A stretch of 64,000 nucleotides of DNA from Candidatus Multivoradales bacterium. Its GTDB lineage: Bacteria; Acidobacteriota; Thermoanaerobaculia; Multivoradales; JAHEKO01. Positions 4,264-41,523 of the stretch are shown piece after piece; position 1 is the first letter of the stretch, and the number at the start of each line of letters is the position of its first letter. Location: NCBI GenBank assembly GCA_965223855.1, contig CBDCXM010000009.1, forward strand, positions 2,193,054-2,257,053, in the 5' to 3' direction. Made by a program: the position numbers and the translations under genes. The notes beneath the pieces were generated by a model. That model saw nothing but the letters and a program-made list of their open reading frames with translations, was not told the origin of the DNA and did not search any database.

Positions 4264-4971
4264 ATGGCAGCAAGAAAGTCGAGCGGGTCGAAGGCCCGCG
4301 CTGGCAGCAAGAAGAAAGCGGCGCGCAAGAGCGCAAAGAAAACCGCGGCAAAGCGCGGCAGGCCTCCCAAGCTTTATACCCTCACCGAGATCGGGAAGCT
4401 GGCGGGCATTTCCATGCCGACGCTGCAGAAGTACAAGCGCGAGTATCAGGACCGCATTCCGTCGGTGGGCGAAGGGCGCAAGCAGCGCTATCCGAAGAGC
4501 GCGATCAAGGCTCTCCAGAAGATCAAGCAGGAGAATCTCGCCAAGAGAGGGCGCCCGCCGCGCGCGAAGACCGGTGGCTCGCGAGCCGGCGGCCCAAAGG
4601 CTGGTGGCTCGGGCCGCAAGCGGGCTGCCAGGTCGGCGGCGACTGCCGCGGGACTGCTGACGCTCAAGGAGGTGCAGCGCCGGACCGGAATCTCCTACCC
4701 GACGCTGTCGCGCTACGTGAAGCTGTTTCTCGACCGCATTCCGCACGAGGGGAGCGGTCGGACCCGCCGTTTCCCCGAAGAGGCAGTCGACGTCTTCCGG
4801 CAGATTCGCAGCGAAAGCAAGCCTGGCCGGCCCGCCGGGAAGTCCTCGGCGAAGGGTGGCGGTGAGACCGATCGCGATCTGGCGACTCGGATCCGCCGGC
4901 TCGAGAAGGCGGTGGCCGATCTCGTCGTCAGCCTCAAGAAGCCGATTCAGGTCACGATCAAGGGTCGCTGA
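4264..4971 (+). CDS. Basic histone-like DNA-binding protein with AT-hooks and two HTH_17 (excisionase/MerR-like) domains
   Basis: K/A/R-rich N-terminus 'MAARKSSGSKARAGSKKKAARKSAKKTAAK', like a histone H1 tail. AT-hook cores 'KRGRPPK' (aa 30-36), 'KRGRPPRAK' (aa 94-102) and 'KPGRPAGK' (aa 187-194). Two related HTH_17-like segments: 'YTLTEIGKLAGISMPTLQKYKREYQDRIPSVGEGRKQRYPKSAIKAL' and 'LTLKEVQRRTGISYPTLSRYVKLFLDRIPHEGSGRTRRFPEEAVDVF'. Good SD 'gaaaggag' before the ATG. Confidence 0.6.
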   Translation: MAARKSSGSKARAGSKKKAARKSAKKTAAKRGRPPKLYTLTEIGKLAGISMPTLQKYKREYQDRIPSVGEGRKQRYPKSAIKALQKIKQENLAKRGRPPRAKTGGSRAGGPKAGGSGRKRAARSAATAAGLLTLKEVQRRTGISYPTLSRYVKLFLDRIPHEGSGRTRRFPEEAVDVFRQIRSESKPGRPAGKSSAKGGGETDRDLATRIRRLEKAVADLVVSLKKPIQVTIKGR

Positions 4972-5962
4972 CGTCGGCGAAGTGGTCCCACCCGCTGATT
5001 GGCAGCGGGTGGCGACCGTCGCCGTCGATCACCTCCAGGCGGTCGCCCGGCTGGGTGAAGCCGATGGCGGTCGCATCGAACCGGTCGGGGACGCGCACCG
5101 TGGGCGGAAGGGCGAACAGCAGAACGTAGTCTTCGCCGCCGCCCAGAGCGACGTCGATCGGCTCGATCCCGAGTCGCCGCTCGAGGGGAGCGAGGCTGCG
5201 GTCGAGCGGCAGCCGGTCGATCTGCACGACCGCTCCCACGCCGCTCTCGCGGGTCAGCCGGGCGAGGTCGATCGCCAGGCCGTCCGAGACGTCGATGACG
5301 GCGCATCTGCGTCGCATCGCGAGCCAGGCTCCGAGGTCGAGCTGCGGTTCGGGGGCGAGGTGGCGCCGAACCGCGCGCTTTGCTGCCCGGGCGAGGGAGC
5401 CGTCCGCCTCGAGTTCCGTCGGTAGCGCGACGCGATTTCCCGCCAGCCTCGCTCCCCGGGCGACACAGGCCTGGCCGAGTGCAGAGGCGCCGAGCGTGCC
5501 GCCGACCCACAGGGTGTCCCCGGGGATCGCACCCCGACGACGCACCCAGCGGCCTCTAGCCTGTCTCCGGCCGCTCAGTACGAGCGAGGTGACGGCTGTC
5601 GGAGCCGTCGCCATGTCGCCACCTGCGAGAGCGATCTGCTGCCGCTCGCAGGCGAGGACCATGGCGTCGAGGAACCTGCGTCTGTCGAAGTCGGCGGGGA
5701 TCGCCAGGGTGAGCAGGGCCGCTTCCGGAACGGCCCCCATCGCGGCCAGGTCGGAGAGGTTGACGGCCAGCAGACGACGCGCCCACACCGCCTCATCCAG
5801 ATCTTCCGGCACGTGCACGCCGGCGACCTGCTGATCGACGGTCCAGGCTCGCTCGGCGCTGCCGCGGCCCAGGATCGCAGCGTCGTCGCCCGGCCGATCG
5901 TCACCGGCGGGAAGCCTCCGTCGCAACCAGGCGACGAGACCGTCTTCGCGGTGCCCGCTCAA
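4958..5962 (-). CDS. thiL: Thiamine-monophosphate kinase
   Basis: AIR-synthase-related fold. 'GDDAAILG', 'LAVNLSDLAAMGAVP' and 'IALAGGDMA' are characteristic of ThiL. Confidence 0.8.
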   Translation of the reverse strand: MSGHREDGLVAWLRRRLPAGDDRPGDDAAILGRGSAERAWTVDQQVAGVHVPEDLDEAVWARRLLAVNLSDLAAMGAVPEAALLTLAIPADFDRRRFLDAMVLACERQQIALAGGDMATAPTAVTSLVLSGRRQARGRWVRRRGAIPGDTLWVGGTLGASALGQACVARGARLAGNRVALPTELEADGSLARAAKRAVRRHLAPEPQLDLGAWLAMRRRCAVIDVSDGLAIDLARLTRESGVGAVVQIDRLPLDRSLAPLERRLGIEPIDVALGGGEDYVLLFALPPTVRVPDRFDATAIGFTQPGDRLEVIDGDGRHPLPISGWDHFADVSDP

Positions 5963-5975
5963 GCTCCCGGCCCGG

Positions 5976-8354
5976 TCATCGGTCGAGCGCGATGTCGAGG
6001 ACTTCCGACATGTGCTCGACGTGATGGAACTCGAGCCCTTCCACGACGTCCTCCGCGATCTCGGCGAGGTCGCGGAGGTTGAGCTTCGGAATCACGATCT
6101 GGCGGATGCCGGCGGCGCGGGCTGCCAGCACCTTCTCCTTGAGCCCGCCGATCGGCAGCACGTCACCTCGCAGGGTGATTTCTCCGGTCATCGCGACGCG
6201 TCGTCGCACCGGCCTTTCCTCGAGCACGGAGAGGATGGCCGCGGCGATCGTAATGCCGGCCGACGGGCCGTCCTTGGGCACCGAGCCGGCGGGCACGTGG
6301 ACGTGGAGGTCGTGCTTCGCGAAGTAGTCCGTCGGAAGCTCGCTGTCGGCGGCGCGGGCGCGGGCAAAGCTCAGCGCCGCCTGTGCCGACTCCTTCATCA
6401 CGTCGCCGAGCTGTCCGGTGAGATGCAGCTTGCCGCTACCCGGTACCGGGACCACCTCGATGAACAGCAGGTCGCCGCCGACCTCTGTCCATGCGAGTCC
6501 GGTGGCGACGCCGATTCGATCGCGATCGAGCAGTTCCTCGCTGAAGTGGCGGCGGGGGCCCAGCAGGTCGGCGATCGAGTCGACGCTCAGCGACACCTTC
6601 GTGGCGGTCCCTCCGGCGATCCGGACCGCCGCCTTCCGGCAGACTCTGGCGATCTCGCGCTCGAGGTTGCGAAGGCCGGCCTCACGCGTGTAGTGCTCGA
6701 CGATCCTCCGCAGCGCCGCGTCCGTGAATCCGAGTTGCGACTTCCTGAGCCCGTGCTGTTCGAGTTGTCGGGGGACGAGATGGCGGCGGGCGATCTCCAC
6801 CTTCTCGTCGACGGTGTATCCGGAGAGACGCAGTACCTCCATCCGGTCGCGAAAGGCGGGTTGGATCGGCTCGAGGAGGTTGGCCGTCGTGAGGAAGAGC
6901 ACCTTGGAAAGATCGTAGGGGACGCCGAGGTAATGGTCGCTGAACTCGGAGTTCTGCTCCGGGTCGAGCACCTCGAGCAGTGCCGAGGAGGGGTCACCGC
7001 GGAAGTCGGCGCCGATCTTGTCGATCTCGTCGAGCATGAACACCGGGTTGGAGGTTCCCGCGCGTTCGATCGCCTGCAGGATCCGCCCCGGCATCGCGCC
7101 GACATAGGTTCGTCTGTGGCCGCGAATCTCCGCCTCGTCTCTCACACCGCCCAGAGAGAGCCGGCAGAACTCCCGCCCCAGCGCGCGGGCGATGGCTCGG
7201 CCGAGTGAGGTCTTGCCGACCCCGGGAGGACCGACGAGACAGAGGATCGGGCCCTTCTGGGCAGGGTTGAGTCGTCGCACCGCGAGGTGCTCGATCACCC
7301 TTTCCTTGACCCGCTCCAGTCCATGATGGTCCTCGTCGAGAACGTCGCGGGCGCGATCGAGGTCGAGGTTGTCCTCGCTGACATGCCCCCATGGCAGGCC
7401 CGTGAGGGTCTCGAGGTAGGTGCGCAGTACCGAGGTTTCCGCGCTCTCGGGATGGGTCCGCTCGAGACGCTGGCACTGACGCTCCAACTCATCGACCGCC
7501 TCCTGTGGCATCGCGCGCTCCTGCGCGGCCGCGCGGTAGCCGGCGATCTCCTCGGTCAGCTCGGCGCCGTCTCCGAGTTCGTCCTGGATCGCCTTGAGCT
7601 GCTGGCGGAGGTAGTACTCCCGCTGGCTCTTCTCCATCTCGTCGCGTGCCTGCAACGAGATCTGCTGCTGCATGTCGAGCAGCTCGACCTCCCGGGCGAG
7701 CAGCCGGTGCACCCGGTCGAGCCGGGCGGCCGGATCGAGGGTGGCGAGAATCTCCTGCGCCTCGCTGCCGACAAGCTCGAGGTTGCTTGCCGCGAGGTCG
7801 GCGAGCCGGCCCGGGTCCTCGAGGTTGGCGGCGAGGATCATGACCTCCGGCGAGATCTGCTTGCCGAGATGAACGACCCGCTCGAGGTTCTCCTTGACCG
7901 AGCGCACCCGCGCTTCGACTTCCAGCGCCTCCTCGTGGTCGGGGGGCGTTGCGTCGAGGGCCTCGTCCGGGCCGCCCTCGGGCAGTTGGGTGATCTTCGC
8001 CTGGAGGTAGGGCTCGGTCTGGCTGAAGTGCTCGACGCGCACCCGTGACAGGCCCTGCACGAGGATCCGGATCCTCCCGTCCGGCAGCTTGAGCATTCGC
8101 ATGATGAGGGCCGCGGTGCCGAGCTTGTGAAGCTCGTCCGGTGTCGGCTGCTCGGAGTGAGGGTCGACCTGTGTCGACAGAAGGATCAGCCGATCCTCGG
8201 CCAGCGCTCGATCGACGGCGGCGAGGCTCGCTTCGCGGCCGACCGAGAGCGGCAGGATGATGTAGGGGAAGAGGACGGTGTTCTTGAGCGGCAGGACCGG
8301 CAGCACGTCCGGCAATCGGACCGACTCCTCGGTCTGTGGGGGCAGCTGAGTCAC
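5976..8354 (-). CDS. lon: ATP-dependent Lon protease
   Basis: N-terminal LON substrate-binding domain '[24 protein letters not shown]', AAA+ Walker A '[15 protein letters not shown]', S16 catalytic serine motif '[17 protein letters not shown]', 792 aa. Confidence 0.95.
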
Positions 8355-8361
8355 TCGGCCG

Positions 8362-8820
8362 TCAGCTTCGCTGAGTCACGAGGTTGCGGACCTCGTCCAT
8401 GAACGCTTCGATGTCCTCGAACTGCCGGTAGACCGAGGCGAAACGGACGTAGGCGACCTGGTCGAGCTCCTTGAGGCCCTTCATCAGAACGGCGCCGATC
8501 TCGGTCGTCGAGATCTCGCGGTCCTCGCTCTCGCTCAGCCTCAGCTCGACGTCGTTGACGATTTCCTCGAGGTCGCGCGTGGCGACCGGTCGCTTCTCGC
8601 ACGCCTTGCGCAGTCCGGTCATCAGCTTGCCGCGGTCGAACTCGGCCCGCGAGCCGTCGCGCTTGACGACCATGTAGGGGATGTCTTCGAGCCGCTCGTA
8701 CGACGTGAAACGCCTGCCGCAGGCGAGGCACTCCCGGCGTCTCCGAATCGCCAGTCCGTCACGGTTCTCGCGCGAATCGACGACGCGGTCGTCGTTCGCC
8801 GAACAGTAGGGACACTTCAT
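8362..8820 (-). CDS. nrdR: Transcriptional repressor NrdR
   Basis: 'MKCPYCSANDDRVVDSRENRDGLAIRRRRECLACGRRFTSYERLE', a zinc ribbon plus ATP-cone, with a very typical NrdR N-terminus. Confidence 0.9.
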   Translation of the reverse strand: MKCPYCSANDDRVVDSRENRDGLAIRRRRECLACGRRFTSYERLEDIPYMVVKRDGSRAEFDRGKLMTGLRKACEKRPVATRDLEEIVNDVELRLSESEDREISTTEIGAVLMKGLKELDQVAYVRFASVYRQFEDIEAFMDEVRNLVTQRS

Positions 8821-8829
8821 CTCGAGGCG

Positions 8830-10689
8830 TCAGTCGGAAGCGGACTCGGCGTCTTCCTGTTCCAGCTCGATGCGCAGGTGGAGGAGCACGTCCTGAAGGC
8901 GATCGATCGCCTCCAGGCTCCACTGAATGTCGCGCTGCTGGTGGAGAACCCGGTTGCGCTCGTCGCGGACCTGGAGGTCGAGAGAGATCTGCCGGGCGCG
9001 GGAAAGATCGTCGCCGGCCAGAGCGACCACCAGATCCTGGTCGATGTGACGTCGGCCGTTGGTCGCCGCGAGCTCCTCGACGGCTTCTGCGGTCGCCTCG
9101 TCGGGCACGTCCTGTGCCTCGTCTTCGTCCTCGGACGCGGCAGGCTCTTCGTCCGGCGAGTCCTGCGCCGCGGCGGTGGCACGCTCCTCTGCGTCGTCTC
9201 GCGCTTTCTCGTCCGCCTCGGCGAGAGCTGCCTCCACCGGGGCGTCCTCCGGGGCGTCGTCCGCGGCCGACTCTTCGGTCTGCTCGGGCTTGCCGGCCTC
9301 GTCCGCAGCCGTCTCCTCGCTCGCAGCCTCCACCGAGTCGGCCTCGTCTTCGACCGGGTCGGAGGAGGGCTCCGCGTCGACCTCCGCCTCTTCCGCGGCC
9401 TCTTCCTGAACCGCGGCGAGCCGCTCGTCCTCAGGGACGACGGCGTCTTCGGCCGCGCTCTCGCTCTCGGCCGGCTCGCCTTCTTCCGGCTCACCTTCTG
9501 CGAACTCGGCCTCGGGCTCCTCGTCGGGCTTGGCGTCGACCAGTTCGGTTTCCACGCGCGGACGTGACGGTGGTGCACCGCCATCGAGAGCGTCCAGCGC
9601 CATGTCCTCGATTTCGTCGTCGGTCGGGGTTTCGTCGGCCGCCTCTGCCGCCGTCTCCTCAGCTTCGCCGTCGGCGGAATCCTCCGGAGCGGTTGCGATC
9701 GACTCGGGCTCGGATCGGGCCTCGGGCTCGGACTGAGACTCGGGCTCGGGCTGGGACTCGGGCTCGGAATCGGACGAAGCGACCTCTGCCGTTTCCTCCT
9801 CGGCTGCAGGCTCCTCGGCCGCCGTGTCCGCTTCGACTTCGGGCGTCGCCGACACAGCGGCCTCTGCCGGGAAGTCCGCTTCGGCCGCGGTCGTCTCGTC
9901 GAGCGCTTCCGGTACCGGCTCGGGCGTCGGTTCTACGATCGTCGGCCCCGGCGGGGTCAGTGTCTCGGGAACCCCGTCCTCGAGCTGCTGCTTGAGCGAG
10001 ATGAGGGTCAGCTTGGAGATCTCGCGCAGCACCTCGAAGATGCCTTCGCCCGAGATCGCCGAGGTCTCGAACTCCGGCCAGCCATTGCTGTTCAGGGCCT
10101 CCCGCAGTTCGGCGACCGAGCAGACCTCCGGCAGGTCACGCTTGTTGTACTGCAGGACGAGCGGGATCTCGTCGATGTCGATGCCGAGTTCCTCGAGATT
10201 CACCTCGAGGTTGCGGAACGACTCGACGTTCGACGGCAGCATCGCCGGCTGAGAGTCGGCGACGAAGACGATGCCGTCCACTCCCTTGAGAACCAGCCGC
10301 CTCGTGCTGTTGTAGAAGACCTGGCCGGGCACCGTGTAGAGCTGTATGCGGGTGTGAAAGCCCGCTACGGTGCCGACTTCGAGCGGCAGGAGATCGAAGA
10401 AGAGCGTCCGGTCGGTCTCGGTCGCGAGCGAGACCATCTTGCCCCGTGCGTCGGGCCGGGTGTGGTGGAAGACGTACTTGAGGCTGGTCGTCTTGCCACA
10501 CAGGCCAGGCCCGTAATAGACGACTTTCGCCGACATCTGGCGAGTGCTGAAATTGAACGATGCCATCGGTGTTCCTGTCCGACGTAGGTAGCGGCGCGAA
10601 CCGACACGCCTCCTCGCCGTCCTCCCAAAAGGACGTCCGGCCGAGGATGGTAGCACTGTTGAGGCTCGTGCACGCGTGGAAACGAGCAC
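8830..10689 (-). CDS. mglA: MglA-family Ras-like small GTPase fused to a long acidic low-complexity C-terminal extension
   Basis: The N-terminal 200 aa align to MglA: 'MASFNFSTRQMSAKVVYYGPGLCGKTT' (P-loop), 'ETDRTLFFD' (intrinsic Arg finger/switch I), 'TVPGQ' (switch II), 'NKRDL' (G4). This is followed, in the same frame with no stop, by about 420 aa that are E/A/D/P-rich ('PESQPEPESQSEPEARSEPES...') and end in a non-repetitive segment '...QISLDLQVRDERNRVLHQQRDIQWSLEAIDRLQDVLLHLRIELEQE'. The stop is 10 nt before nrdR. Confidence 0.8.
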   Translation of the reverse strand: MLVSTRARASTVLPSSAGRPFGRTARRRVGSRRYLRRTGTPMASFNFSTRQMSAKVVYYGPGLCGKTTSLKYVFHHTRPDARGKMVSLATETDRTLFFDLLPLEVGTVAGFHTRIQLYTVPGQVFYNSTRRLVLKGVDGIVFVADSQPAMLPSNVESFRNLEVNLEELGIDIDEIPLVLQYNKRDLPEVCSVAELREALNSNGWPEFETSAISGEGIFEVLREISKLTLISLKQQLEDGVPETLTPPGPTIVEPTPEPVPEALDETTAAEADFPAEAAVSATPEVEADTAAEEPAAEEETAEVASSDSEPESQPEPESQSEPEARSEPESIATAPEDSADGEAEETAAEAADETPTDDEIEDMALDALDGGAPPSRPRVETELVDAKPDEEPEAEFAEGEPEEGEPAESESAAEDAVVPEDERLAAVQEEAAEEAEVDAEPSSDPVEDEADSVEAASEETAADEAGKPEQTEESAADDAPEDAPVEAALAEADEKARDDAEERATAAAQDSPDEEPAASEDEDEAQDVPDEATAEAVEELAATNGRRHIDQDLVVALAGDDLSRARQISLDLQVRDERNRVLHQQRDIQWSLEAIDRLQDVLLHLRIELEQEDAESASD

Positions 10690-10795
10690 GTTCCTCGCGG
10701 CGACCCGCCGCCGTGAAAACGGTTACAATCCCTGGTTGCTCGCCGCGGTCGCGCCGTCCGCGCGCCCGCGAGCGGGCACAGCCTCCGGAGCTTCC

Positions 10796-11869
10796 GTGCC
10801 CGACTCCACTGCAGCGACCGCCAAGCCACTTTCGCCGAGGGACGAAGAGATCCTCAAGGACGTCGTGCGCGAGTTCATCGTGCGCGGTGCCCCGGTGAGC
10901 TCGCGAACGGTGGCGAAGGATCCGCGCCTCGGGCTTTCCGCAGCGACCGTTCGCAACACGATGGCCGACCTGGAGGAGGCGGGGTACCTGTTGCAGCCTC
11001 ACACGTCGGCCGGCAGGGTGCCGACGGAGGCGGGCTATCACGCCTACATCGACTCGCTTCCGGGCAGGGAGGGCATCGCCGAGGAGGAGCGTCGGCGGAT
11101 CGATCGCGAACTGCCGGAGAACTCCGATGGCGAGGAGCTGGTCGAGAGGGCGGGACAGATGCTCTCCGAACTGACCGATCAGATCGGCATCGTCCTGACT
11201 CCGGCGATGGGAGAGACGGTGCTGCGCGAAGTGTCGCTGGTCGGTCTCTCGGAGGCGCGCGTTCTGTGTGTGGTCGTCTCCGCCGACGGTTTCGTCGATC
11301 ACAAGATCGTCCAGCTCGAAGGCGCGGCGACGCGCGAGGAGCTGGTCGAGGCTTCGAACTACCTCAACAGCACGTTCGCCGGAATGACCCTCGGCGAAGC
11401 GCGGGAGCGGCTGCTGCGGAGGATGGCGGAAGAACGGGCGCAGGTCGATCGCCTGCTCGGGCGGACCCTGGCGGTAGCCCATCAGGCACTGGCGGACAGC
11501 GATGCACACGACGTCGTCGTGCAGGGGACTTCCGTGGTGCTGACCCGGCCCGAACTCGCGGACGTCGAGCGGGTGCGGCGGCTGGTCGACAAGTTCGACG
11601 ATCGGGCGCGACTGGTGTCGCTCCTGAATCAACTCATCGACGGACGGGGGGTGAGGGTCGTGATCGGGGACGAGAGCGACCTGACCTCGGACGTCGATTT
11701 CAGTCTCGTCTCGAGGACCTACCGGGCGGGGAATCGCAGTGTTGGTAGCGTGGGCGTCTTCGGCCCATCGCGGATGGAGTACGGAAAGGTCATCCCGCTG
11801 GTCGACTATCTCGGGGAGCGGCTCAGCCGCGCCCTGCAGTCGCCGGGAGAGGCCGGATCCCGCCTGTGA
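10796..11869 (+). CDS. hrcA: Heat-inducible transcription repressor HrcA
   Basis: 'LSPRDEEILKDVVREFIVRGAPVSSRTVAKDPRLGLSAATVRNTMADLEEAGYLLQPHTSAGRVPTEAGY' is the HrcA winged-HTH N-terminus. The tool ORF begins at GTG 10676, but that start overlaps mglA. An in-frame GTG at 10796 with the SD 'GGAG' 7 nt upstream is the more likely start. Confidence 0.8.
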   Translation: MPDSTAATAKPLSPRDEEILKDVVREFIVRGAPVSSRTVAKDPRLGLSAATVRNTMADLEEAGYLLQPHTSAGRVPTEAGYHAYIDSLPGREGIAEEERRRIDRELPENSDGEELVERAGQMLSELTDQIGIVLTPAMGETVLREVSLVGLSEARVLCVVVSADGFVDHKIVQLEGAATREELVEASNYLNSTFAGMTLGEARERLLRRMAEERAQVDRLLGRTLAVAHQALADSDAHDVVVQGTSVVLTRPELADVERVRRLVDKFDDRARLVSLLNQLIDGRGVRVVIGDESDLTSDVDFSLVSRTYRAGNRSVGSVGVFGPSRMEYGKVIPLVDYLGERLSRALQSPGEAGSRL

Positions 11870-17597: not shown

Positions 17598-17736
17598 ACC
17601 GCGCCGGGTGCCGCCGCTGCAACGGTTTGCGTTGGCCCGTAACCTACCGTCCTGCTAGGCTTTTCGGTCAACGAACCGAGTGTCGAGGCTCGACCGGCCG
17701 CCGCCGGTCGGTCGCCGAGCACAACGAGAGGCTGCC

Positions 17737-18900
17737 ATGAGCATCAACGACCTTCTCAAAGTCGCCGTCGAGCGCGAGGCGTCGGACCTTCACCTGAAGG
17801 TCGGCAATCACCCGGTGCTGCGCATCAACGGGCGGCTCCACCCGATGCTGGAGATCAACCGCCTGATGCAGGACGACACGGCGGCCATGGCGTTCTCGAT
17901 CATGAACGCCCGCCAGAAGCAGCGCTTCAAGGAGGACCTCGAGATCGACATCGGCTACTCGGTCCCGGGGCTCGGGCGCTTCCGCTGCAACGTCTTCCAG
18001 CAGCGCGGCGCGGTCGGACTGGTGCTGCGTGTCATCCCGACCACCATCCTCGGGGTCCGGGAACTCATGCTGCCGCCGGTGATCGAGAAGATCGCCGAAG
18101 AGCAGCGCGGTCTGGTGCTCGTGACCGGCACTACCGGCTCGGGTAAGTCGACGACACTCGCCGCGATGATCGACCACATCAACGAGCGCCGCACCGAGCA
18201 CGTCGTGACGATCGAGGATCCGATCGAGTTCATCCATCAGGACAAGAAGTCGCTCGTCAATCAGCGTGAACTCGACGTCGACACGCGCGGCTTCGCGCCG
18301 GCGCTGCGATCCGCATTGCGTCAGGACCCCGACGTCATCCTCGTCGGTGAGATGCGCGACTACGAGACGATCGAGACCGCGCTGCTGGCGGCCGAGACCG
18401 GCCATCTGGTGCTCTCGACCCTCCATACCCTCGACGCCACCGAGACGGTCAACCGCATCATCGCCGTCTTCCCGCCGCATCAGCAGAAGCAGATCCGCAT
18501 CCAGCTCTCGCAGGTACTCAAGGCGATCATCTCTCAGCGCCTGATGCCGCGAGCGGACGGGGTCGGCCGGGTGCCGGCGGCCGAGATCCTGCTGGCGACC
18601 GCCTACATCCGCGACTGCATCGAGAACAAGGAAAAGACCAAGTACATCCGCGAGCAGATCGCCCTCGGCACGAGCCAGTACGGCATGCAGACCTTCGACC
18701 AGTCGCTCTACCACCTCTACGAGAGCGGTCTCATCACCTTCGACGAGGCTCTGCGCAGGGCGTCGAACCCGGACGAGTTCAAGCTCAAGGTCCAGGGTGT
18801 TCAGTTCACCTCCGACGCGGCTCGCGAGCAGATGGAGTCGTCGCTCGAGATGTCGAGCGGCTTCGGCGGCGGTGGCATCGACGATGCCGTCGAGCCCTGA
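17737..18900 (+). CDS. pilT: Type IV pilus retraction ATPase PilT
   Basis: 'MSINDLLKVAVEREASDLHLKVGNHPVLRINGRL', Walker A 'GTTGSGKSTTLAAMIDHIN', 'VGEMRDYETIETALLAAETGHLVLSTLHT', 387 aa. ATG at 17737 with the SD 'gagagg'. Confidence 0.9.
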   Translation: MSINDLLKVAVEREASDLHLKVGNHPVLRINGRLHPMLEINRLMQDDTAAMAFSIMNARQKQRFKEDLEIDIGYSVPGLGRFRCNVFQQRGAVGLVLRVIPTTILGVRELMLPPVIEKIAEEQRGLVLVTGTTGSGKSTTLAAMIDHINERRTEHVVTIEDPIEFIHQDKKSLVNQRELDVDTRGFAPALRSALRQDPDVILVGEMRDYETIETALLAAETGHLVLSTLHTLDATETVNRIIAVFPPHQQKQIRIQLSQVLKAIISQRLMPRADGVGRVPAAEILLATAYIRDCIENKEKTKYIREQIALGTSQYGMQTFDQSLYHLYESGLITFDEALRRASNPDEFKLKVQGVQFTSDAAREQMESSLEMSSGFGGGGIDDAVEP

Positions 18901-33336: not shown

Positions 33337-34452
33337 GTGATTGAAGATCGCAAGGTCGCGTGGGCGGTCGCGGCCGGGATCGCACTGTTCCTCATCGCCC
33401 TCCTGTTCTCCGAGAAGGTGCAGCGGGAGCTGCGGCCGGAGCTCGTCGGTGCGCACGTCGGTATCGAGATCGAGGGCAGCGGCGTGGCGCGCGTCGGGAC
33501 GGTCGAGGTCACTGCGGGCACGGCGGCGACTCTTCACGCCGTCCTCGAGGGACGGAAGCGCTCGGGAGAGGCGATCTACTACAGCGAAGCCTCGGCGATC
33601 GAGCTCGACGGCAAGCGGGTGGAAGAGTCGTCGATCGAGCCGTGGCCGGGGCCCGAGGAGGTGCGGATCCTCTGGTTCTCGGTCGAGGGTCCGCGGCCGC
33701 TCGTGGAGCTGCGCGGGGAAGATGGTCTCGAGCGGGTTCGCTTTCAGGAGGTCTACCGCTCCGACTGGCCGCGCGGGTGGTCGATTCCCGCGAGTCTCAA
33801 GCCGGCGCGCGCCAACTGGACGGCGGAGGTCCGTGCTCTGCGCGGAGATCCGTTCGGCACCCAGCGCTACCAGGTCCGGGTCGAACTCTTCGGCCAGGCG
33901 AGCCAGCTCGTGCCGCTCGCGAGCTTCGATTCTGCGGGGGTCGACGAGGTCATCACGCTGGGACGAGCCTTCCCGACCCTCGTCGCGACGCTCCCGGAGC
34001 GCCTCGCTCTGGCGTCTCGTGTCTTCGGGCTGACCCAGGTCCGCTGGGGTGATTCGCCCCCCGAAGCCGCCGTCACGGTCCTCCAGTCGTGGTTCGAGAG
34101 CGATCTCGCCTACTCGCGCGTCCTGCTGCTTCGGCGGATGCTCGATCGGGCGGGAGCGCGTCTGGAGTCGCTCGAGTGGACCGCCGTCGACCTCGCGGCG
34201 GGACCCGACTGGAATCCCGACGGGGAACAGGGCGCGGTGGGCCCCGGGGACCTTCTGCGCGCCGGAGACCGCGTGGTCGTCCTGTTCGAGGACCGGGGAA
34301 CCGCCGGCCGGCTCGATCTCGATGACCTCTGTTTCGACTTCGAGGACGGCGCCGATGTCGTTCGACTGGGCGAGATATTCTCCGGCGAAGGTCTGGTGGA
34401 GCATGCGGCGTTGCAGCCGTCGGCGGCCCGGACGGGCGAGGAGGACGTGTGA
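33337..34452 (+). CDS. Hypothetical protein with an N-terminal membrane anchor
   Basis: 371 aa. N-terminal TM 'VAWAVAAGIALFLIALLFS'. No motif recognised in the remainder. It lies 9 nt after the TPR gene and overlaps the next gene start (GTGA), which suggests co-transcription. Confidence 0.5.
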   Translation: MIEDRKVAWAVAAGIALFLIALLFSEKVQRELRPELVGAHVGIEIEGSGVARVGTVEVTAGTAATLHAVLEGRKRSGEAIYYSEASAIELDGKRVEESSIEPWPGPEEVRILWFSVEGPRPLVELRGEDGLERVRFQEVYRSDWPRGWSIPASLKPARANWTAEVRALRGDPFGTQRYQVRVELFGQASQLVPLASFDSAGVDEVITLGRAFPTLVATLPERLALASRVFGLTQVRWGDSPPEAAVTVLQSWFESDLAYSRVLLLRRMLDRAGARLESLEWTAVDLAAGPDWNPDGEQGAVGPGDLLRAGDRVVVLFEDRGTAGRLDLDDLCFDFEDGADVVRLGEIFSGEGLVEHAALQPSAARTGEEDV

Positions 34453-36631: not shown

Positions 36632-38167
36632 TCAGCCCGGCTCGCGGTCGAGAGAGTAGGGCACGTGCCGCGCGACCTCGGCGAGCGAGGTCACTCCGCG
36701 CTCGACCTTGACCAGCGCGTCGTCGAGCAGGGTCCGCATGCCGCCGCTCTGGGCCTCGCGCCGCAGGACGTGGGGCGGTCGGCCGCGCGCCATCCGGTGC
36801 GCGGCGGCTCCGTCGATGGTGAAGAGCTCGAAAACGCCGACCCGCCCCCGGTAGCCGTCGAGGCAGGCGTCGCAGCCGACCGGCTCGAACGCTTCGAGCT
36901 CACGTCCCTCGAGTCCCAGGCGGCGCAGCAGCGCCGCATCGGCAGGAGCCGGCCGCCGGCACTCGACGCACAGTCGGCGCAGGAGGCGCTGCGCGAGCAC
37001 CGCCAGCAGGGCGTCGGCCATCATCGCCCGCTCGACGGCGAGCGTTTCGAGCCTCGGTACCGCACCGACCGCGTCACGGGTGTGCAGGGTGCTCAAGACG
37101 AGATGCCCGGTCTGTGCCGCGCGCACCGCCAGCGCTGCGGTCTCCTCGTCGCGGATCTCGCCGATCATGAGGATGTCGGGATCCTGCCGCAGGAACGCGC
37201 GAGCGTAGTCGGAGAAGCCCATGGTCGGGCCGACCTGCTTCTGGTTGGCCTTGGGGAGTTCGTACTCGATCGGGTTCTCGACCGTCAGCAGCTTGTTGCC
37301 GTCGTGGTTGACGGTGCGGATCGCTGCGTAGAGGGTGGTCGTTTTGCCGCTGCCGGTCGGTCCTGTGATCAGGACCATCCCCTCCGGTGAGGCGACCGCG
37401 TCGCCGAACGCCCGAGCGGTGTCGGCCTCCATGCCGAGGGCGTCGAAGCCGAGGTCGGGCGCACCTGAGTCGAGCACCCGCACGACCGCGTCCTCGCCGT
37501 GGGGGCCAGGGAGGACCGATAGGCGCAGGTCGATTTCCCGGGGGTCCCGATCCGGCTCTTCGAAGATCGCCAGCACCCGTCCGTCCTGCGCCCGGCGGCG
37601 CTCGGCGATGTCGAGCCCGGCGAGCACCTTGAGGTACGAGATCGCAGCCGGCACGTGTTCGGACGAGATCGGGGTCGAGACCTGCCGCAGCACGCCGTCG
37701 ACCCGGAGCCGCACATCGACGTCACCGCGATAGCTCTCGAAGTGGACGTCGCTCGCACCGAGAGTGATCGCCTGAGCGATCGCCTCGTGCACGAGGCGTC
37801 GCACGGCACGATCCGGCTGGTAGGAGATCCGGTGCACCGGCTGGAGGCGCAGCGGCTCGTCTCCGGTCCCGCGGTGCCGCCCGGTGGGGTAGCCGACAGC
37901 GACCGCCGTTTCGACCTCGTGCTGGTGGAGGCGGACCACTTCGATCGGCCGCCTCAGCGCGTCTTCGACCGCCTCGACGGTCGCGGCGTCTCCGGGTCGG
38001 ACCAGGCCGACAGTCACCGCGTCGCTGTCCTCGGCAGGCACCGACCCGAGCACGACGACCCCACGACGAAGACAGAACTCGCGGCCCAGCAGGCGCACCG
38101 CTTCGGCATCGATCTCGAAGTGCGACAGCTCGGTGAACTGGTGAGGGTCGGGCTCGTTCCGGCTCAT
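36632..38167 (-). CDS. GspE/PilB-family secretion ATPase (T2SS/T4P assembly ATPase-like), orphan
   Basis: N1-like domain, Walker A 'GPTGSGKTTTLYAAI', 'IGEIRDEETAALAVRAAQTGHLVLSTLHT', and a C-terminal tetracysteine 'CVECRR...GCDACLDG'. No GspF/PilC platform gene is adjacent. Confidence 0.85.
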   Translation of the reverse strand: MSRNEPDPHQFTELSHFEIDAEAVRLLGREFCLRRGVVVLGSVPAEDSDAVTVGLVRPGDAATVEAVEDALRRPIEVVRLHQHEVETAVAVGYPTGRHRGTGDEPLRLQPVHRISYQPDRAVRRLVHEAIAQAITLGASDVHFESYRGDVDVRLRVDGVLRQVSTPISSEHVPAAISYLKVLAGLDIAERRRAQDGRVLAIFEEPDRDPREIDLRLSVLPGPHGEDAVVRVLDSGAPDLGFDALGMEADTARAFGDAVASPEGMVLITGPTGSGKTTTLYAAIRTVNHDGNKLLTVENPIEYELPKANQKQVGPTMGFSDYARAFLRQDPDILMIGEIRDEETAALAVRAAQTGHLVLSTLHTRDAVGAVPRLETLAVERAMMADALLAVLAQRLLRRLCVECRRPAPADAALLRRLGLEGRELEAFEPVGCDACLDGYRGRVGVFELFTIDGAAAHRMARGRPPHVLRREAQSGGMRTLLDDALVKVERGVTSLAEVARHVPYSLDREPG

Positions 38168-38252: not shown

Positions 38253-38642
38253 ATGAACGAGATCCGCCGCAAACCGACCGAGTCCGAGCTGCGCATCCTG
38301 CGAGTGCTGTGGAGGCAGGGACCTTCCTCGGTGCGCGACGTCCACGAGGCCCTGCGCGCCGAGCACGAGGTCGGCTATACGACCGTCCTCAAGCTGCTCC
38401 AGATCATGGCGGAGAAGGGGTCGGTGACCCGCGACGACAGCCGGCGGGCCCACATCTACGCGGCCGCCGAGCCTGCCGATGCCACCAAGCGGCGGTTGGC
38501 GGGCGACCTCGTCGAGCGGGTGTTCGAGGGATCGGCGCGCGATCTGCTCCTGCACGCCCTCGGCTCGAGCGAGCCGTCGGCCGAGGAGCTCGAGGCGATG
38601 CGCGATCTGATCGACCGCTTCGAGAAGGGGGAGACGTCATGA
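38253..38642 (+). CDS. blaI: BlaI/MecI/CopY-family transcriptional repressor
   Basis: 'MNEIRRKPTESELRILRVLWRQGPSSVRDVHEALRAEHEVGYTTVLKLLQIMAEKGSVTRDDSRRAHIYAA' shows the Penicillinase_R winged helix. The stop overlaps the next start (ATGA). Confidence 0.85.
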   Translation: MNEIRRKPTESELRILRVLWRQGPSSVRDVHEALRAEHEVGYTTVLKLLQIMAEKGSVTRDDSRRAHIYAAAEPADATKRRLAGDLVERVFEGSARDLLLHALGSSEPSAEELEAMRDLIDRFEKGETS

Positions 38643-40492
38643 TGCCCACGGACGGCACGATCGAGGCGCTCGGTTGGGCGCTTCTGCACTCCGTGTGGCA
38701 GATCGCCGCACTCGCCCTCGTGGCGGCCGTCTCGCTCTCGTTCCTGCGTCGACCTGCGACGCGGTATCTCTTCGGCGTCGGAATCCTGGTGCTGATGCTC
38801 GCGGTCCCGATGGCGACCTTCGTCGCCGGTCTCGACGGCGCCTCCGCACCTGCCGTTGGGATGGTGGCAGACGCCGGGTCGGCATCCGAGGCTACGGCGT
38901 CGACGCCGCTCTCCCGAAGAGTCGAGCCGCCCAGCCCCGGCCTGGTACGGGGCCTGATGCCCGGCCTGATGTCGGCGCGAGTGCTCACCACGGCAGTGCT
39001 CGTCTGGTGCTGTGGAGTCGCGCTCCTCGGCCTGCGCGCGCTCGGAGCGCTGTGGTGGGTTCGCAGGCTCGAGCGGGCCTCGGCCGAGCTGCCGAGGCGC
39101 GCTCTCGAGCTGTGTCGTGACGTCGAGCACCGGCTCGGTCTGCGGCGTGCGGTGCACTACGCCGCGAGCAGGGAGGGAGAGGGGCCGGCGGTGATCGGAG
39201 TGCTGCGCCCGATGGTCCTGCTGCCGATGGCGGCGCTGGCGGGCCTGCCCCCAGAGCAGTTGCGGCTCATCGTCGCTCACGAGCTGGCTCATATCCGACG
39301 CTGGGACTCGCTCGTCAACCTCGGTCAGGTGGTCGTCGAAACGCTCCTCTTCTACCATCCGGGCGTCTGGTGGCTGAGTCGGAGGGTTCGCGGCGAGCGG
39401 GAGCTCGCCTGCGACGACCTGGTGCTCCACGGCGGCGGGCGGGAGCGTGCCGTGGACTACGCTCGGGCGCTCAGCTCGCTGGCCGCCCTGCCCCGCACTC
39501 CCGTCCTCGCGCCCGGGGCCCGAGGCGGCTCGCTGACGAGCCGCGTCGAGCGCATTCTCGGCGTCGATCGGGGCGGTTCCGGTGCGCGTGGGCTGAGGCT
39601 GGTCGCGGCCGCTGCCGGGCTGGTGGTGGCGCTCTTCGCCACGTCCGGCCTCGCGACGCCCCAGAACCCTCTGCCTGCGGACCGGCACCCCGCCGTCTCG
39701 CTGACGCCCTCGGGTGGAGAAGAGGTGCGCTTCGAGGCCGCGACGGCCTCGTCGGCCAGGAGCGACGAGGAGCCGGGCGCAGAGGCTACGCGCGAGGAGC
39801 CTCGTGAGCGACCGGCAGACGGCGAGCGGAGGGATCGCGACGCGGCGCGCCGCGCCTCCGCGGAGTCCCGCCCCGACGGCGCCACGAGCTACATCGACGA
39901 GCTCCGCGCCGCCGGACTCGATCCCGACGTCGATCAACTCATCGCCCTCAAGGTGAACGGCGTCACCGGCCGGTACGTGAGGGCGCTCGCGGCGGCCGGA
40001 TTCCGGCCGGGCCCGGACGACCTGATCGCCATGCGGGTACATGGTGTCGATCCCGAGTTCGTCGCGGCCGTGCGGGACGCCGGCTACCAGCCGTCGAAGG
40101 ACGATCTGGTGGCGCTGCGGGTCCACGGCGTCGATCCGGCTACCGCCACGACGCTGCGGGCCGCAGGATTCGAACCGACTCTCGACGATCTGGTCGCGCT
40201 GAGGGTCCACGGTGTGGATCCGGCGACCGCGACGGCCCTTCGAGCCGCCGGATTCGAACCGACCCTCGACGACCTCGTCGCGCTCCGCGTCCATGGCATC
40301 TCACCGTCTCTCGCCGCGGCGCTCGCGACCGCCGGTCTGGCAGAGGACCTCGATGACGTAGTCGCCGCCGGCATTCACGGCGTGACCCCTGAGTTCGTCG
40401 ACCTCGCCCGCAGTCACGGCTTCGACGACCTCGATCTCGATCAACTGATCCAACTCCGCCGCCTCGGTGTCCTCGACACCGGCGACCGGTGA
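38639..40492 (+). CDS. BlaR1/MecR1-like signal-transducing peptidase (M56) whose extracytoplasmic sensor is replaced by a novel 28-aa tandem repeat domain
   Basis: N-terminal TMs, HEXXH 'IVAHELAHIRRWD' and 'ETLLFYHPGVWW' typical of Peptidase_M56. A further TM 'LRLVAAAAGLVVALFATSGL' follows. The extracytoplasmic region then carries about 7 repeats such as 'DDLVALRVHGVDPATATTLRAAGFEPTL'. There is no penicillin-binding (SxxK) sensor domain. Confidence 0.8.
   Translation: MMPTDGTIEALGWALLHSVWQIAALALVAAVSLSFLRRPATRYLFGVGILVLMLAVPMATFVAGLDGASAPAVGMVADAGSASEATASTPLSRRVEPPSPGLVRGLMPGLMSARVLTTAVLVWCCGVALLGLRALGALWWVRRLERASAELPRRALELCRDVEHRLGLRRAVHYAASREGEGPAVIGVLRPMVLLPMAALAGLPPEQLRLIVAHELAHIRRWDSLVNLGQVVVETLLFYHPGVWWLSRRVRGERELACDDLVLHGGGRERAVDYARALSSLAALPRTPVLAPGARGGSLTSRVERILGVDRGGSGARGLRLVAAAAGLVVALFATSGLATPQNPLPADRHPAVSLTPSGGEEVRFEAATASSARSDEEPGAEATREEPRERPADGERRDRDAARRASAESRPDGATSYIDELRAAGLDPDVDQLIALKVNGVTGRYVRALAAAGFRPGPDDLIAMRVHGVDPEFVAAVRDAGYQPSKDDLVALRVHGVDPATATTLRAAGFEPTLDDLVALRVHGVDPATATALRAAGFEPTLDDLVALRVHGISPSLAAALATAGLAEDLDDVVAAGIHGVTPEFVDLARSHGFDDLDLDQLIQLRRLGVLDTGDR
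39932..40460 (+). repeat. In-frame 84-nt tandem coding repeats (28-aa units) within the BlaR1-like gene
   Basis: Units start at 39932, 40016, 40100, 40184, 40268... Units 3 and 4 encode identical peptides but differ at many synonymous positions. Confidence 0.8.
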
Positions 40493-40503
40493 AAGGAACC
40501 CCG

Positions 40504-41523
40504 ATGACCCGCCTCTCCGCCTCGCTCGCCGCTGCCCTTCTGATTCTCGCTACCCTCCCGCTCGCCGCAGACCACGACTGGTCGAGCGGCTCCTGGGAGC
40601 TCGAGCCCGACGAGCCGGGCGAGGTGCGGCTCGAGCTGACCTCCGGTCGGGCCGGCCACCGTTCGCACTGGAACTCCGACATCGAGGTCGCTGCGTTCAC
40701 CGGCCTCGACCTCTCGGTCTCAGGCCGCCGCGACGTCGTTTTCACCCTCGCGCGCGACGCCGGCACGGTCGAGTTCCGCGGTGAGATGCGGGGCGAGCGT
40801 GGGGAGGGGAGCTACAGCTTCTCGCCCGACGAGGGCTACGAAGAGAGGATGGCGAGCCTCGGTTTCCGCATCGACGACGACGACCTCTTCGCCTACGCGC
40901 TGCACGACGTCTCGCTCGACTTCGCCCGCCGGATGCAGGAGGCGGACATTCGCGGTCTCGACGGCGACGCGCTGCTGGCGTTCCGCATCCACGGCGTGGA
41001 CGGGGCCTATGTCGACGGCATCCGCTCCGCCGGGCAGGCGGTCGACGACAGCGACTCCTGGATCGCCTTCCGGATTCACGGCGTCTCCGCCGAGATGATC
41101 CGCCGGCTGAGAGCCTCGGGCTACGATCCCGACGACGACGACCTCATCGCGCTGCGGATTCACGGCGCGAGCCCGGAGTGGGTGAGCGAGCTCGCCGCGC
41201 ACGGCTACGATCATCTCGATCTCGACGACATGGTCGCGTTCCGCATCCACGGCGTGACGCCGGAGTTCATCGGCCGGATCCGCCAACTCGGCTATGAAGG
41301 GCCTGCGGCCGACCAGCTCGTCGCGATGCGGATCCACGGCGTTACCGCCGACTTCATCGATCAGATCCAGAAACTCGGCTTCGACCGTCCCGGCACCGAC
41401 CAACTCGTCGCCATGCGGATTCACGGCGTGACTCCCGACTACATCAGCGACCTGCGCGGTCGTGGGCTCGAGAATCTGTCGATCGAGAAGCTGATCGAGC
41501 TGAGGATTCACGGGATCGACTGA
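40504..41523 (+). CDS. Secreted protein carrying the same 'RIHGV' 28-30-aa tandem repeats as the BlaR1-like sensor
   Basis: Signal peptide 'MTRLSASLAAALLILATLPLAADHD' (ATG 40504 with the SD 'AAGGAA'; the tool ORF starts at GTG 40489, overlapping the blaR stop). About 7 repeats: 'DDDLIALRIHGASPEWVSELAAHGYDHL', 'DLDDMVAFRIHGVTPEFIGRIRQLGYEGP', 'ADQLVAMRIHGVTADFIDQIQKLGFDRPG', 'TDQLVAMRIHGVTPDYISDLRGRGLENL'... Confidence 0.7.
   Translation: MTRLSASLAAALLILATLPLAADHDWSSGSWELEPDEPGEVRLELTSGRAGHRSHWNSDIEVAAFTGLDLSVSGRRDVVFTLARDAGTVEFRGEMRGERGEGSYSFSPDEGYEERMASLGFRIDDDDLFAYALHDVSLDFARRMQEADIRGLDGDALLAFRIHGVDGAYVDGIRSAGQAVDDSDSWIAFRIHGVSAEMIRRLRASGYDPDDDDLIALRIHGASPEWVSELAAHGYDHLDLDDMVAFRIHGVTPEFIGRIRQLGYEGPAADQLVAMRIHGVTADFIDQIQKLGFDRPGTDQLVAMRIHGVTPDYISDLRGRGLENLSIEKLIELRIHGID

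Follow-up and report, generated by a model that had tools for sequence, protein, structure and literature searches.

What should be made of an MglA gene that continues for several hundred codons beyond the end of canonical MglA and has no mglB gene beside it? MglA is the model for bacterial Ras-like polarity switching, and our understanding of it rests on the Myxococcus trio of MglA, MglB and RomR. The question is raised by a minus-strand open reading frame (ORF) at 8830..10689 in a 64-kb stretch of the genome of a Candidatus Multivoradales bacterium (Acidobacteriota; contig CBDCXM010000009.1, positions 2,193,054 to 2,257,053), to which we refer as the window. In this uncultivated Acidobacteriota lineage, a conserved MglA core is followed by a hypervariable disordered linker and a conserved new end domain, and the neighbouring gene for a GTPase-activating protein (GAP) is missing. 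What is new at the family level is the conserved C-terminal domain together with its anticorrelation with an adjacent mglB; the polyanionic character of the tail is clade-specific and fast-evolving.

The ORF is uninterrupted and yields 619 aa if read from the GTG at 10689, as in the ORF list. The true start is almost certainly the ATG at 10566, since an AGGA lies 6 nt 5' of it and close homologues display the N terminus MASFNFSTRQM. The complete coding sequence of the extended MglA therefore spans 8830..10566 on the minus strand (578 aa plus stop), and the extension beyond canonical MglA measures 383 aa, while the original prediction, made from the letters of the window before this start correction, had estimated a tail of about 420 aa. 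A protein of 578 aa identical to that of the window is present in a public protein collection (P0001). The GC content at third codon positions (GC3) is 0.80-0.89 in each of the gene's three parts, as expected if this frame is coding. The longest-ORF starts of the MglA gene (GTG at 10689) and of the divergent hrcA gene (GTG at 10676) overlap, and both are probably over-extended; HrcA relatives have 352-371 aa versus 397 aa in the window, and the true hrcA start probably lies downstream of 10676.

High-GC genomes do yield long spurious ORFs, several of which overlap here, and an assembly or sequencing artefact, in which the loss of a stop or a shift of frame some 195 codons into the gene joins MglA to a downstream ORF, would produce a similar gene. 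No support for such an event was found. A protein search covered 5.8 billion proteins, and the best 120 matches taken from it were all 344-578 aa long and consisted of an MglA G domain, a low-complexity stretch and a C-terminal block. The survey of homologues proposed with the original prediction thus finds the C-terminal extension, with the same in-frame domain, in all of these best 120 relatives, which come from independent assemblies; GC3 is coding-like throughout the gene. The sole split case, and the sole example seen of a separate tail gene (L089:2-1123), shows one in-frame stop between G domain and tail on a contig at 0.97x coverage, and is probably a sequencing error. Because the in-frame terminal domain is kept behind linkers of very different length, we consider a frameshift or lost stop ruled out, leaving a negligible chance for an artefact. 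The fusion is thus a genuine single gene, as had been predicted, with the C-terminal domain in frame in every relative despite the hypervariable linkers; it is not the unusual protein it had seemed, as the three-part architecture is common to a large family (141 clusters with the C-terminal domain).

Judged from its sequence, the N-terminal part of the protein (1-195 aa; 9982..10566, minus strand) is a complete group-1 MglA switch. Its alignment with M. xanthus MglA (PDB 6h17) is free of gaps over residues 2-193 (E=4.8e-72), and T. thermophilus MglA (3t12) is matched over residues 1-189 (E=3.7e-65), while Pfam gives only weak Arf/Ras matches on the window protein. The P-loop GPGLCGKTT fits GxGxxGK(T/S)T with Gly at position 21 (G21, K25/T26), the intrinsic arginine finger R53 is present in switch I (RTLFFD), and the G4 motif NKRD is found at 141-144 (N141-K-R-D144). 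The G3 motif YTVPGQ is of the TxxGQ type (PMC3000849, PMC4316618), in which Thr78 replaces the Ras-type Asp, and it includes the catalytic Gln82. All four MglA hallmarks first picked out from the sequence, GPGLCGKTT, RTLFFD, TVPGQ and NKRD, are therefore in place. G21, R53, T78 and Q82 are invariant among 137 full-length family members, and the G-domain core is under a constraint comparable to that of DnaK or Lon. The functions of GTP binding and hydrolysis, and of polarity or motility, are presumed from family membership. In a full-length AlphaFold2 (AF2) model, built on a 74-sequence alignment, the predicted local distance difference test score (pLDDT) is 83-94 for residues 100-190 and below 50 for residues 1-96, which comprise the P-loop, switch I and beta2-beta3; the shallow, near-identical alignment or the two beta2 registers of MglA could be the cause.

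The element that defines the family lies at the other end of the protein. The C-terminal domain (503-572 aa, NGRRHID...IELEQED; 8851..9060, minus strand) has about 70 aa, is rich in predicted beta strand and is modelled as a beta hairpin with flanking segments. Its consensus is NGRxELSRxIELTLKRxDFxRARRFLxSxQVEDxxxRVxDAVRDLQVDIxDxxxLEKLLLRLNIALxAKE, and the corresponding block in the window reads NGRRHIDQDLVVALAGDDLSRARQISLDLQVRDERNRVLHQQRDIQWSLEAIDRLQDVLLHLRIELEQED; in the domain alignment (A3), N, G, D and L are invariant. The mean AF2 pLDDT of the domain is 82 when modelled alone and the score reaches 86-93 in the full-length model. Modelled alone, the domain folds into a long beta hairpin and a short helix, and two more conserved segments stay unpaired. 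The end of the protein had been described as a probably helical segment of roughly 60 aa, which AF2 replaces by about 70 aa with a beta hairpin and short helices. No Pfam or NCBIfam family was found for the tail or the C-terminal domain (Pfam being run on 30 members), and a sequence-profile search of the PDB with the domain returned chance-level matches only (E>=0.1).

The profile of the domain was searched against 1.84 billion cluster representatives at E<=1e-3, and the domain was found in 141 clusters at 50% identity, always at the extreme C terminus. All full-length matches begin with the MglA N terminus and the P-loop, while the short matches look like contig-end fragments; one of them (L088) starts 52 nt from the end of its contig and is followed by nrdR. 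A stand-alone C-terminal domain was considered and rejected, the two matches examined being this contig-end fragment and the low-coverage in-frame stop described above. The domain thus appears to be specific to MglA fusions. In three large proteins (P0212, P0224 and P0232; 1749-2895 aa), positions 21-59 of the domain profile, which cover the hairpin, match 4-9 repeat units with E values of 4e-8 to 1e-4; a similar composition of beta repeats (cadherin-like FDVTVQVDD) probably accounts for these matches.

The proteins with this C-terminal domain group as one clade when G domains are placed in a neighbour-joining tree; M. xanthus MglA falls in a separate, MglB-coupled clade, and other extension types form their own clades. 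The family is, on these sequences, monophyletic and vertically inherited, and its named sources are all Acidobacteriota. Fourteen G-domain positions split the family from the MglB-coupled canonical MglAs (4, 9-13, 41, 59, 64, 74, 87, 109, 184 and 187). Among these substitutions, 59 F->L falls in beta2 at a residue that contacts MglB, 64 L->V in the pocket to which MglB binds, and 184 and 187 in alpha5.

The second family-wide feature is the absence of mglB next to the gene. In the window, no Roadblock/MglB-like ORF was found by Pfam on small ORFs, by tblastn or by a control-validated hidden Markov model (HMM) of MglB. The tblastn query was the M. xanthus MglB sequence, identical to PDB 6h5b_B, and it matched neither the window nor the related loci examined first. 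The HMM was built iteratively from 80 loci with G-domain relatives that were added by a metagenome scan, and it gave no match across 331 kb of loci of the C-terminal-domain type, including the whole window; Pfam tables show no Robl_LC7 within 10 kb on each side in five related loci. The predicted absence of an adjacent mglB is thus borne out, and the description of the gene as being without mglB is established for the locus and the 64-kb window. Among canonical MglAs of <=215 aa, mglB lies within 1 kb in 24/25 cases, and in 18/18 where both flanks are at least 600 nt long. The same count is 0/21 for extended MglAs with a strict match to the C-terminal domain, 0/7 for those with a weak match, and 4/26 for those with other tail types, all four of which end in a basic amphipathic helix. 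The C-terminal domain and an adjacent mglB are therefore strictly anticorrelated (0/28 versus 24/25).

Such a strict anticorrelation is what would be seen if the C-terminal domain were a built-in substitute for the Roadblock GAP MglB, which would dock on a G domain, its own or a neighbouring one, at the flipped beta2 face and thereby position R53 and Q82 for hydrolysis. All intrinsic catalytic residues are kept, and the two conserved strand-like segments that are unpaired in the monomer model could pair with another sheet. We nevertheless regard this substitution as very unlikely. A domain of about 70 aa is far below the size of the MglB dimer interface, a GAP acting in cis has no need for a linker of 70-312 aa, and no likeness to MglB or Roadblock was detected. 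In particular, we rejected a cryptic or half Roadblock as the identity of the domain, since hhalign against an MglB alignment gives a probability of 0.3% and Pfam gives no match; the alpha-beta-beta-alpha-beta-beta-beta fold of about 100-130 aa by which Roadblock/LC7 is recognised is not found in the C-terminal domain.

Between the G domain and the C-terminal domain lies a low-complexity acidic linker (196-502 aa; 9061..9981, minus strand) of 307 aa, which is predicted to be disordered; the pLDDT in the full-length AF2 model stays below 50 over nearly all of residues 204-490. Its composition (E 25%, A 22%, D 11%, P 11%) matches the tail rich in E, A, D and P that had been described, and its net charge is -103 over the 307 aa. 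Across 137 full-length relatives, the linkers vary from 70 to 312 aa and from -103 to +14 in net charge, and in most of them they are rich in Pro and Ala and slightly basic. Consistently acidic linkers are found only in the clade of the window, whose 11 closest relatives range from -12 to -46 with the window as the extreme, while a few scattered members outside this clade also have net-negative linkers. In the nearest relative (L006/P0005), the G domain is 94% identical and the linker is 171 aa shorter. The notion of a built-in polyanionic tail hence applies to the window and its clade and fails as a property of the family, and since the linkers of most relatives are slightly basic, a function that depends on the polyanion could concern at most the clade of the window. 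The PESQ/SEPE periodicity reported for the tail is real and is the only true periodicity in it, yet it is local: Tandem Repeats Finder places a repeat with a period of 12/18 nt and about 4 copies at 9701..9773 (minus strand), where it encodes about 25 aa (SEPESQPEPESQSEPEARSEPES).

Within these otherwise unalignable linkers, a few short motifs are conserved. An acidic amphipathic helix motif specific to the clade of the window (PTDDEIEDMALDALD, 314-328 aa; 9583..9627, minus strand) follows the pattern (L/M/P)(S/T)DD(D/E)IEDxAL(D/A)xL in 9/11 clade members. In the AF2 model, a helix at residues 316-327 with a pLDDT of about 70 coincides with it inside the low-pLDDT linker, so that DDEIEDMALDAL (314-328 aa) is a D/E-rich predicted helix on a flexible extension. 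A second small conserved island, TELVDAKPDE (9520..9549, minus strand), was noted by eye; it lies 10-15 aa past the first motif in P0003-P0006, P0008 and P0010, with LVDAVPxP as its form in relatives. A short AF2 helix, AEAVEELAAT (492-501 aa; 9064..9093, minus strand), abuts the C-terminal domain, and in the clade of the window a helix of the type E[IV]xx[LI]Ax[TS]NG immediately precedes that domain. Across the family, D[VIA]LxELE[KR][LI]R occurs in 109/137 relatives, typically 20-66 aa ahead of the C-terminal domain; the helix at 492-501 aa may be the counterpart, and a putative homologue, of this family-wide DVLxELEKLR helix.

These acidic helices deserve attention in view of how MglB acts on MglA in Myxococcus. 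According to Baranwal et al. 2019 (PMC6785124), MglA has a pocket made up of alpha5 (K181, K185), beta2 and the beta2-beta3 loop (L64, I67), and nucleotide exchange is promoted when the acidic helix at the C terminus of MglB (AEISDDDIDNLFSE) binds there. RomR has a Glu-rich helix that, once grafted onto MglB, can replace the MglB helix, and the Roadblock domain touches F56, F57 and F59 of MglA beta2 (PMC6785124). In the extended family, position 181 is K/R in 133/137 relatives and position 185 in 134/137, while positions 64 and 67 are hydrophobic (V and I/V, respectively); of the beta2 residues that contact MglB, F56 and F57 are retained and F59 is conservatively changed to L. The clade motif LSDDDIEDSAL (TDDEIEDMAL in the window) resembles the MglB C termini encoded beside canonical genes (SPFAEITDEDIDxLFSE). 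When the MglB helix EITDEDIDNLF is set against TDDEIEDMALDAL of the window, both are D/E-rich, amphipathic and carried on a flexible segment, and the pocket residues are conserved; the helix of the window differs in being located on MglA itself, in cis, and in one clade, and its likeness is non-significant as a 16-mer and marginal as a 10-mer. This likeness was assessed with a position-specific scoring matrix (PSSM) from 13 distinct MglB C termini against composition-preserving shuffles of each tail, and because the result is weak and inconsistent, homology to the MglB helix is not claimed. We treat the likeness as a suggestive lead and not as evidence of homology. Within the clade, the pocket residues are invariant, which leaves no variation against which the presence of the motif could be compared.

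Taking these observations together, we tentatively favour, at somewhat less than an even chance, a tethered and partly self-regulated MglA switch, in which the linker tethers the G domain to a domain for targeting or oligomerisation, helices act in cis on the pocket, and the extreme acidity is lineage-specific. The linker would serve mainly as a flexible tether that joins the G domain to the C-terminal domain, which would anchor the protein to a partner or site, or allow oligomerisation. Short amphipathic acidic helices of the tail would fold back in cis onto the pocket of alpha5 and the beta2-beta3 loop, with DDEIEDMALDAL as the candidate helix in the clade of the window. In this way the protein could regulate itself in part, as a switch for polarity or motility that probably serves type IV pili, and could rely less on a neighbouring MglB. 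In the window, the extreme length and acidity of the linker (307 aa, net -103) would be a lineage-specific exaggeration of the tether and not a conserved requirement, with an expansion owed in part to the small SEPE microsatellite. The original prediction had suggested that the tail acts as a tether or as an autoinhibitory or partner-binding element, and we retain this idea, by inference, as the best working model. If the tail does regulate in cis, the protein would provide a compact natural case of intramolecular control of a small GTPase and a handle on the allosteric pocket used by MglB.

Several observations weigh against this reading. The contact between the tail and the G domain is a putative one, and since neither a known fold nor a homologue is recognised for the C-terminal domain, an anchoring or oligomerising role is a guess. 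Against shuffles that keep the acidic composition, the likeness to the MglB helix is not robust: the window motif has a shuffle p of 0.47 as a 16-mer and of 0.0165 for its 10-mer core (EIEDMALDAL versus EITDEDIDNL), and across the clade the 10-mer p ranges inconsistently from 0.002 to 0.96. Moreover, the DDEIEDxAL motif is confined to the clade of the window, most of the family having the less acidic DVLxELEKLR helix. The basic residues 181 and 185 are present in canonical M. xanthus MglA as well and are thus not family-specific, and the family-specific substitutions are confounded by shared ancestry. As residues 1-96 have low confidence in the full-length AF2 model, the model was not used for docking. 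Finally, an mglB could be encoded elsewhere in the genome, the scope of the search being the 64 kb of the window.

Many of the same data are accommodated by a passive tether, in which the linker acts as an entropic spacer. The C-terminal domain and the helices would attach to other proteins or to a site such as the pole or the pilus machinery, and the G domain would be controlled in trans, as in canonical MglA, by MglB or RomR/RomX-like proteins encoded elsewhere. The length and charge of the linker are unconstrained, conservation within the tail is highest in the C-terminal domain, and the beta2 residues F56 and F57 are retained with only a conservative change at F59. The invariant G21 suggests that the protein is hydrolysis-competent, and other MglA lineages carry different C-terminal targeting-like elements, such as basic amphipathic helices and coiled coils. 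The absence of adjacent mglB next to 28 genes, when 24/25 canonical genes have one, does not sit easily with control in trans, and the conserved acidic linker helices facing a retained basic pocket suggest more than a spacer; neither point is decisive. A purely passive tether is a serious possibility, albeit a doubtful one, and even then the family would have a new targeting domain and offer a bacterial analogue of eukaryotic hypervariable-region logic. Eukaryotic Ras, Rho and Rab proteins combine a conserved G domain with a fast-diverging flexible segment and a conserved terminal targeting element, and the passive tether is likened to this hypervariable region with its targeting signal. In the window family the linker is up to ten times longer and the end is a folded domain instead of a lipidation motif, so that the comparison is one of analogy only, without homology.

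In a bolder reading, the protein might be a self-contained switch on one polypeptide, whose tail gives in cis what Myxococcus MglA receives from MglB and RomR in trans: an acidic helix would drive nucleotide exchange by way of the allosteric pocket, and a C-terminal domain of new fold would contribute GAP-like positioning, or else polar anchoring or oligomerisation. We hold this to be unlikely; were it true, a whole lineage of Acidobacteriota would manage its cell polarity with no Roadblock GAP.

The partly self-regulated switch that we favour can be set against the known MglA systems. Canonical MglA, that is group 1 of Wuichet and Sogaard-Andersen 2014 (M. xanthus MXAN_1925, PDB 5YMX/6H17/6IZW; T. 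thermophilus 3T12), has the same catalytic set of G21, R53, T78, Q82 and NKRD, and the basic alpha5 residues 181 and 185 are common to both; the window protein differs by its 383 additional C-terminal residues, the lack of an adjacent mglB, the family substitutions and its separate clade. The reference survey of the family recognises proteins of 150-240 aa with mglB within four genes, and in these two respects the window protein (578 aa) falls outside it. That survey left out proteins of more than 240 aa, and its two Acidobacteria entries have 194 and 196 aa (PMC4316618); because longer proteins were discarded, the three-part architecture and the other extension types were outside its scope. 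Functionally, SofG and the orphan MglA of Bdellovibrio come closest. SofG, an M. xanthus paralogue of MglA, is also longer than the 195-aa core and has the intrinsic arginine (PMC4316618). MglB does not stimulate it, a GAP for it is not known, and its action is on the positioning of PilB and PilT (PMC4316618); PilT-like and PilB-like genes occur in the window as well. With 239 aa (PMC4316618), and nothing that indicates a C-terminal domain or a long disordered linker, it is set apart from the window protein by its description and not by sequence. The orphan MglA of Bdellovibrio bacteriovorus likewise lacks mglB, but it is a single-domain protein with S21, while the window protein has G21 and a long tail. 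Within the Acidobacteria, Koribacter (Acidobacterium) has MglA and RomR without MglB (PMC3983030), although the MglA of Koribacter versatilis has 194 aa (PMC4316618 supplement), in contrast to the long-tailed protein of the window. We found no description of an MglA with a long C-terminal tail in the full-text literature searched, most subscription journals lying outside its coverage.

Extended MglAs of other kinds were encountered as well, and C-terminal extension of MglA seems widespread in metagenomes. Four proteins of 343-442 aa (L036:2804-4150, L059:9974-11248, L080:186-1397 and L081:439-1650) terminate in a basic amphipathic helix (KKKKKGFFLFRLFGKK, KKKKRGFFKRLFGIK or RRFFG...FARFFRWIFGR), and such ends look like membrane-targeting sequences. 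Unlike the type with the C-terminal domain, this class does adjoin mglB-like genes; several ORFs in L036 and in L059 are Roadblock-like, and in L059 and L080 a PilT-like gene follows at about 570 nt downstream. Further extensions are found in L048, L058, L060 and L069 (about 350-376 aa), in L047, L068, L073, L075 and L078 (about 306 aa), and in L033, L038, L042 and L043 (403-449 aa). Their ends are coiled-coil-like (LEQQIESLRAQHRAEL...), short and beta-rich (QFQLRVTIDMDAP...KVFVKNVK) or of other kinds; each type forms its own clade of G domains, and none has an adjacent mglB.

The genomic context of the gene was described from the outset as the head of an nrdR-lon-thiL string, divergent from hrcA and with its stop just before nrdR, and this arrangement holds. 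The nrdR gene (8362..8820, minus strand; Pfam Zn_ribbon_NrdR and ATP-cone) has its ATG at 8820, 9 nt past the MglA stop codon (8830-8832). It is followed after 7 nt by lon (5976..8354, minus strand; Pfam LON_substr_bdg, AAA, Lon_C) and, 13 nt after lon, by a thiL-like gene (4958..5962, minus strand; Pfam AIRS/AIRS_C) whose position is conserved. On the other side, hrcA (10676..11869, plus strand; Pfam HrcA) heads hrcA-grpE-dnaK-dnaJ. The order mglA-nrdR-(hsp20)-lon-thiL, followed by a MerR-like gene and divergent from hrcA-grpE-dnaK-dnaJ, recurs in relatives, in which the identities with the window are 65-69% for the G domain, 71-75% for DnaK, 61-70% for Lon and 43-53% for ThiL. The nrdR gene lies <=31 nt downstream in 10 loci besides the window and in the fragment L088, lon has the same position in L001-L003, L005-L007, L010, L012 and L014, and the divergent hrcA is kept in L003-L006, L009, L010, L014, L019, L020 and L030. 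A consensus promoter and terminator scan of 4800-11200 gave no match, and the operon structure is therefore inferred from gene spacing.

Such neighbours raise the possibility that the protein acts with them in stress or proteostasis (nrdR, lon, hsp20; hrcA-grpE-dnaK-dnaJ) and not in motility or polarity, for example as a GTP-sensing regulator, or as a client or adaptor of Lon or DnaK whose disordered acidic tail serves as a handle. The tight gaps to nrdR, lon and thiL, the insertion of hsp20 between nrdR and lon in L003 and L005, and the persistence of nrdR and, in about 10 loci, of divergent hrcA between relatives with G domains only 65-69% identical would all suit such a role. The collinearity extends, however, over about 25 kb and also includes a sigma-54 activator, ABC permeases, a GAF protein, the MerR-like gene, prmA, rsmE and a PilT-like ATPase; since these genes are unrelated, gene order is weak evidence for function and looks like general inertia. 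The mglA-nrdR junction is breakable, as a DUF4160/DUF2442 pair is inserted in L003 (L003:11234-11711) and a histidine kinase with two response-regulator genes in L004 (L004:11397-17621), and the context differs altogether in L016, L024 and L029. The HrcA operator CIRCE was not found in the window with <=3 mismatches, nor was an inverted repeat found in the divergent promoter region. All studied proteins of the MglA family act in polarity or motility (PMC4316618, PMC3983030). A role in stress or proteostasis is accordingly judged quite improbable, and we read the synteny as lineage-wide inertia of gene order with probable co-transcription. The housekeeping operon of the original prediction was right as to the neighbours; within some 25 kb of general collinearity, it is weak evidence for function.

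Among the more distant neighbours, a PilT-like type IV pilus ATPase (17680..18900, plus strand; 406 aa, Pfam T2SSE) lies about 7 kb from the MglA gene. It is the most conserved neighbour, with orthologues that are 75-78% identical and located 6.5-9.5 kb upstream in L004, L010 and L014, where the distance to the MglA gene is kept; L005 contains a partial match. The gene at 36632-38167 (minus strand) encodes a PilB/GspE-like ATPase of 511 aa whose N terminus carries an MshEN domain. That type IV pilus ATPases are encoded close by is consistent with the output usual for the MglA family, without proving it.

Rfam and tRNA scans of the window gave no match. Three coding-like ORFs have no Pfam match at E<=1e-5, at 33337-34452 (plus strand, 371 aa), 38456-40294 (minus strand, 612 aa) and 40489-41523 (plus strand, 344 aa); the 612-aa ORF is possibly spurious because it overlaps a BlaI-type repressor gene on the opposite strand (38253-38642, plus strand). 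The window also encodes a 607-aa protein (49334-51157, plus strand) that matches Peptidase_M2, the angiotensin-converting enzyme family, from end to end (E=5e-220), and this gene stands amid other peptidase genes, of the S9/DPP-IV type at 41845-44373 and of the M20 type at 53357-54505.

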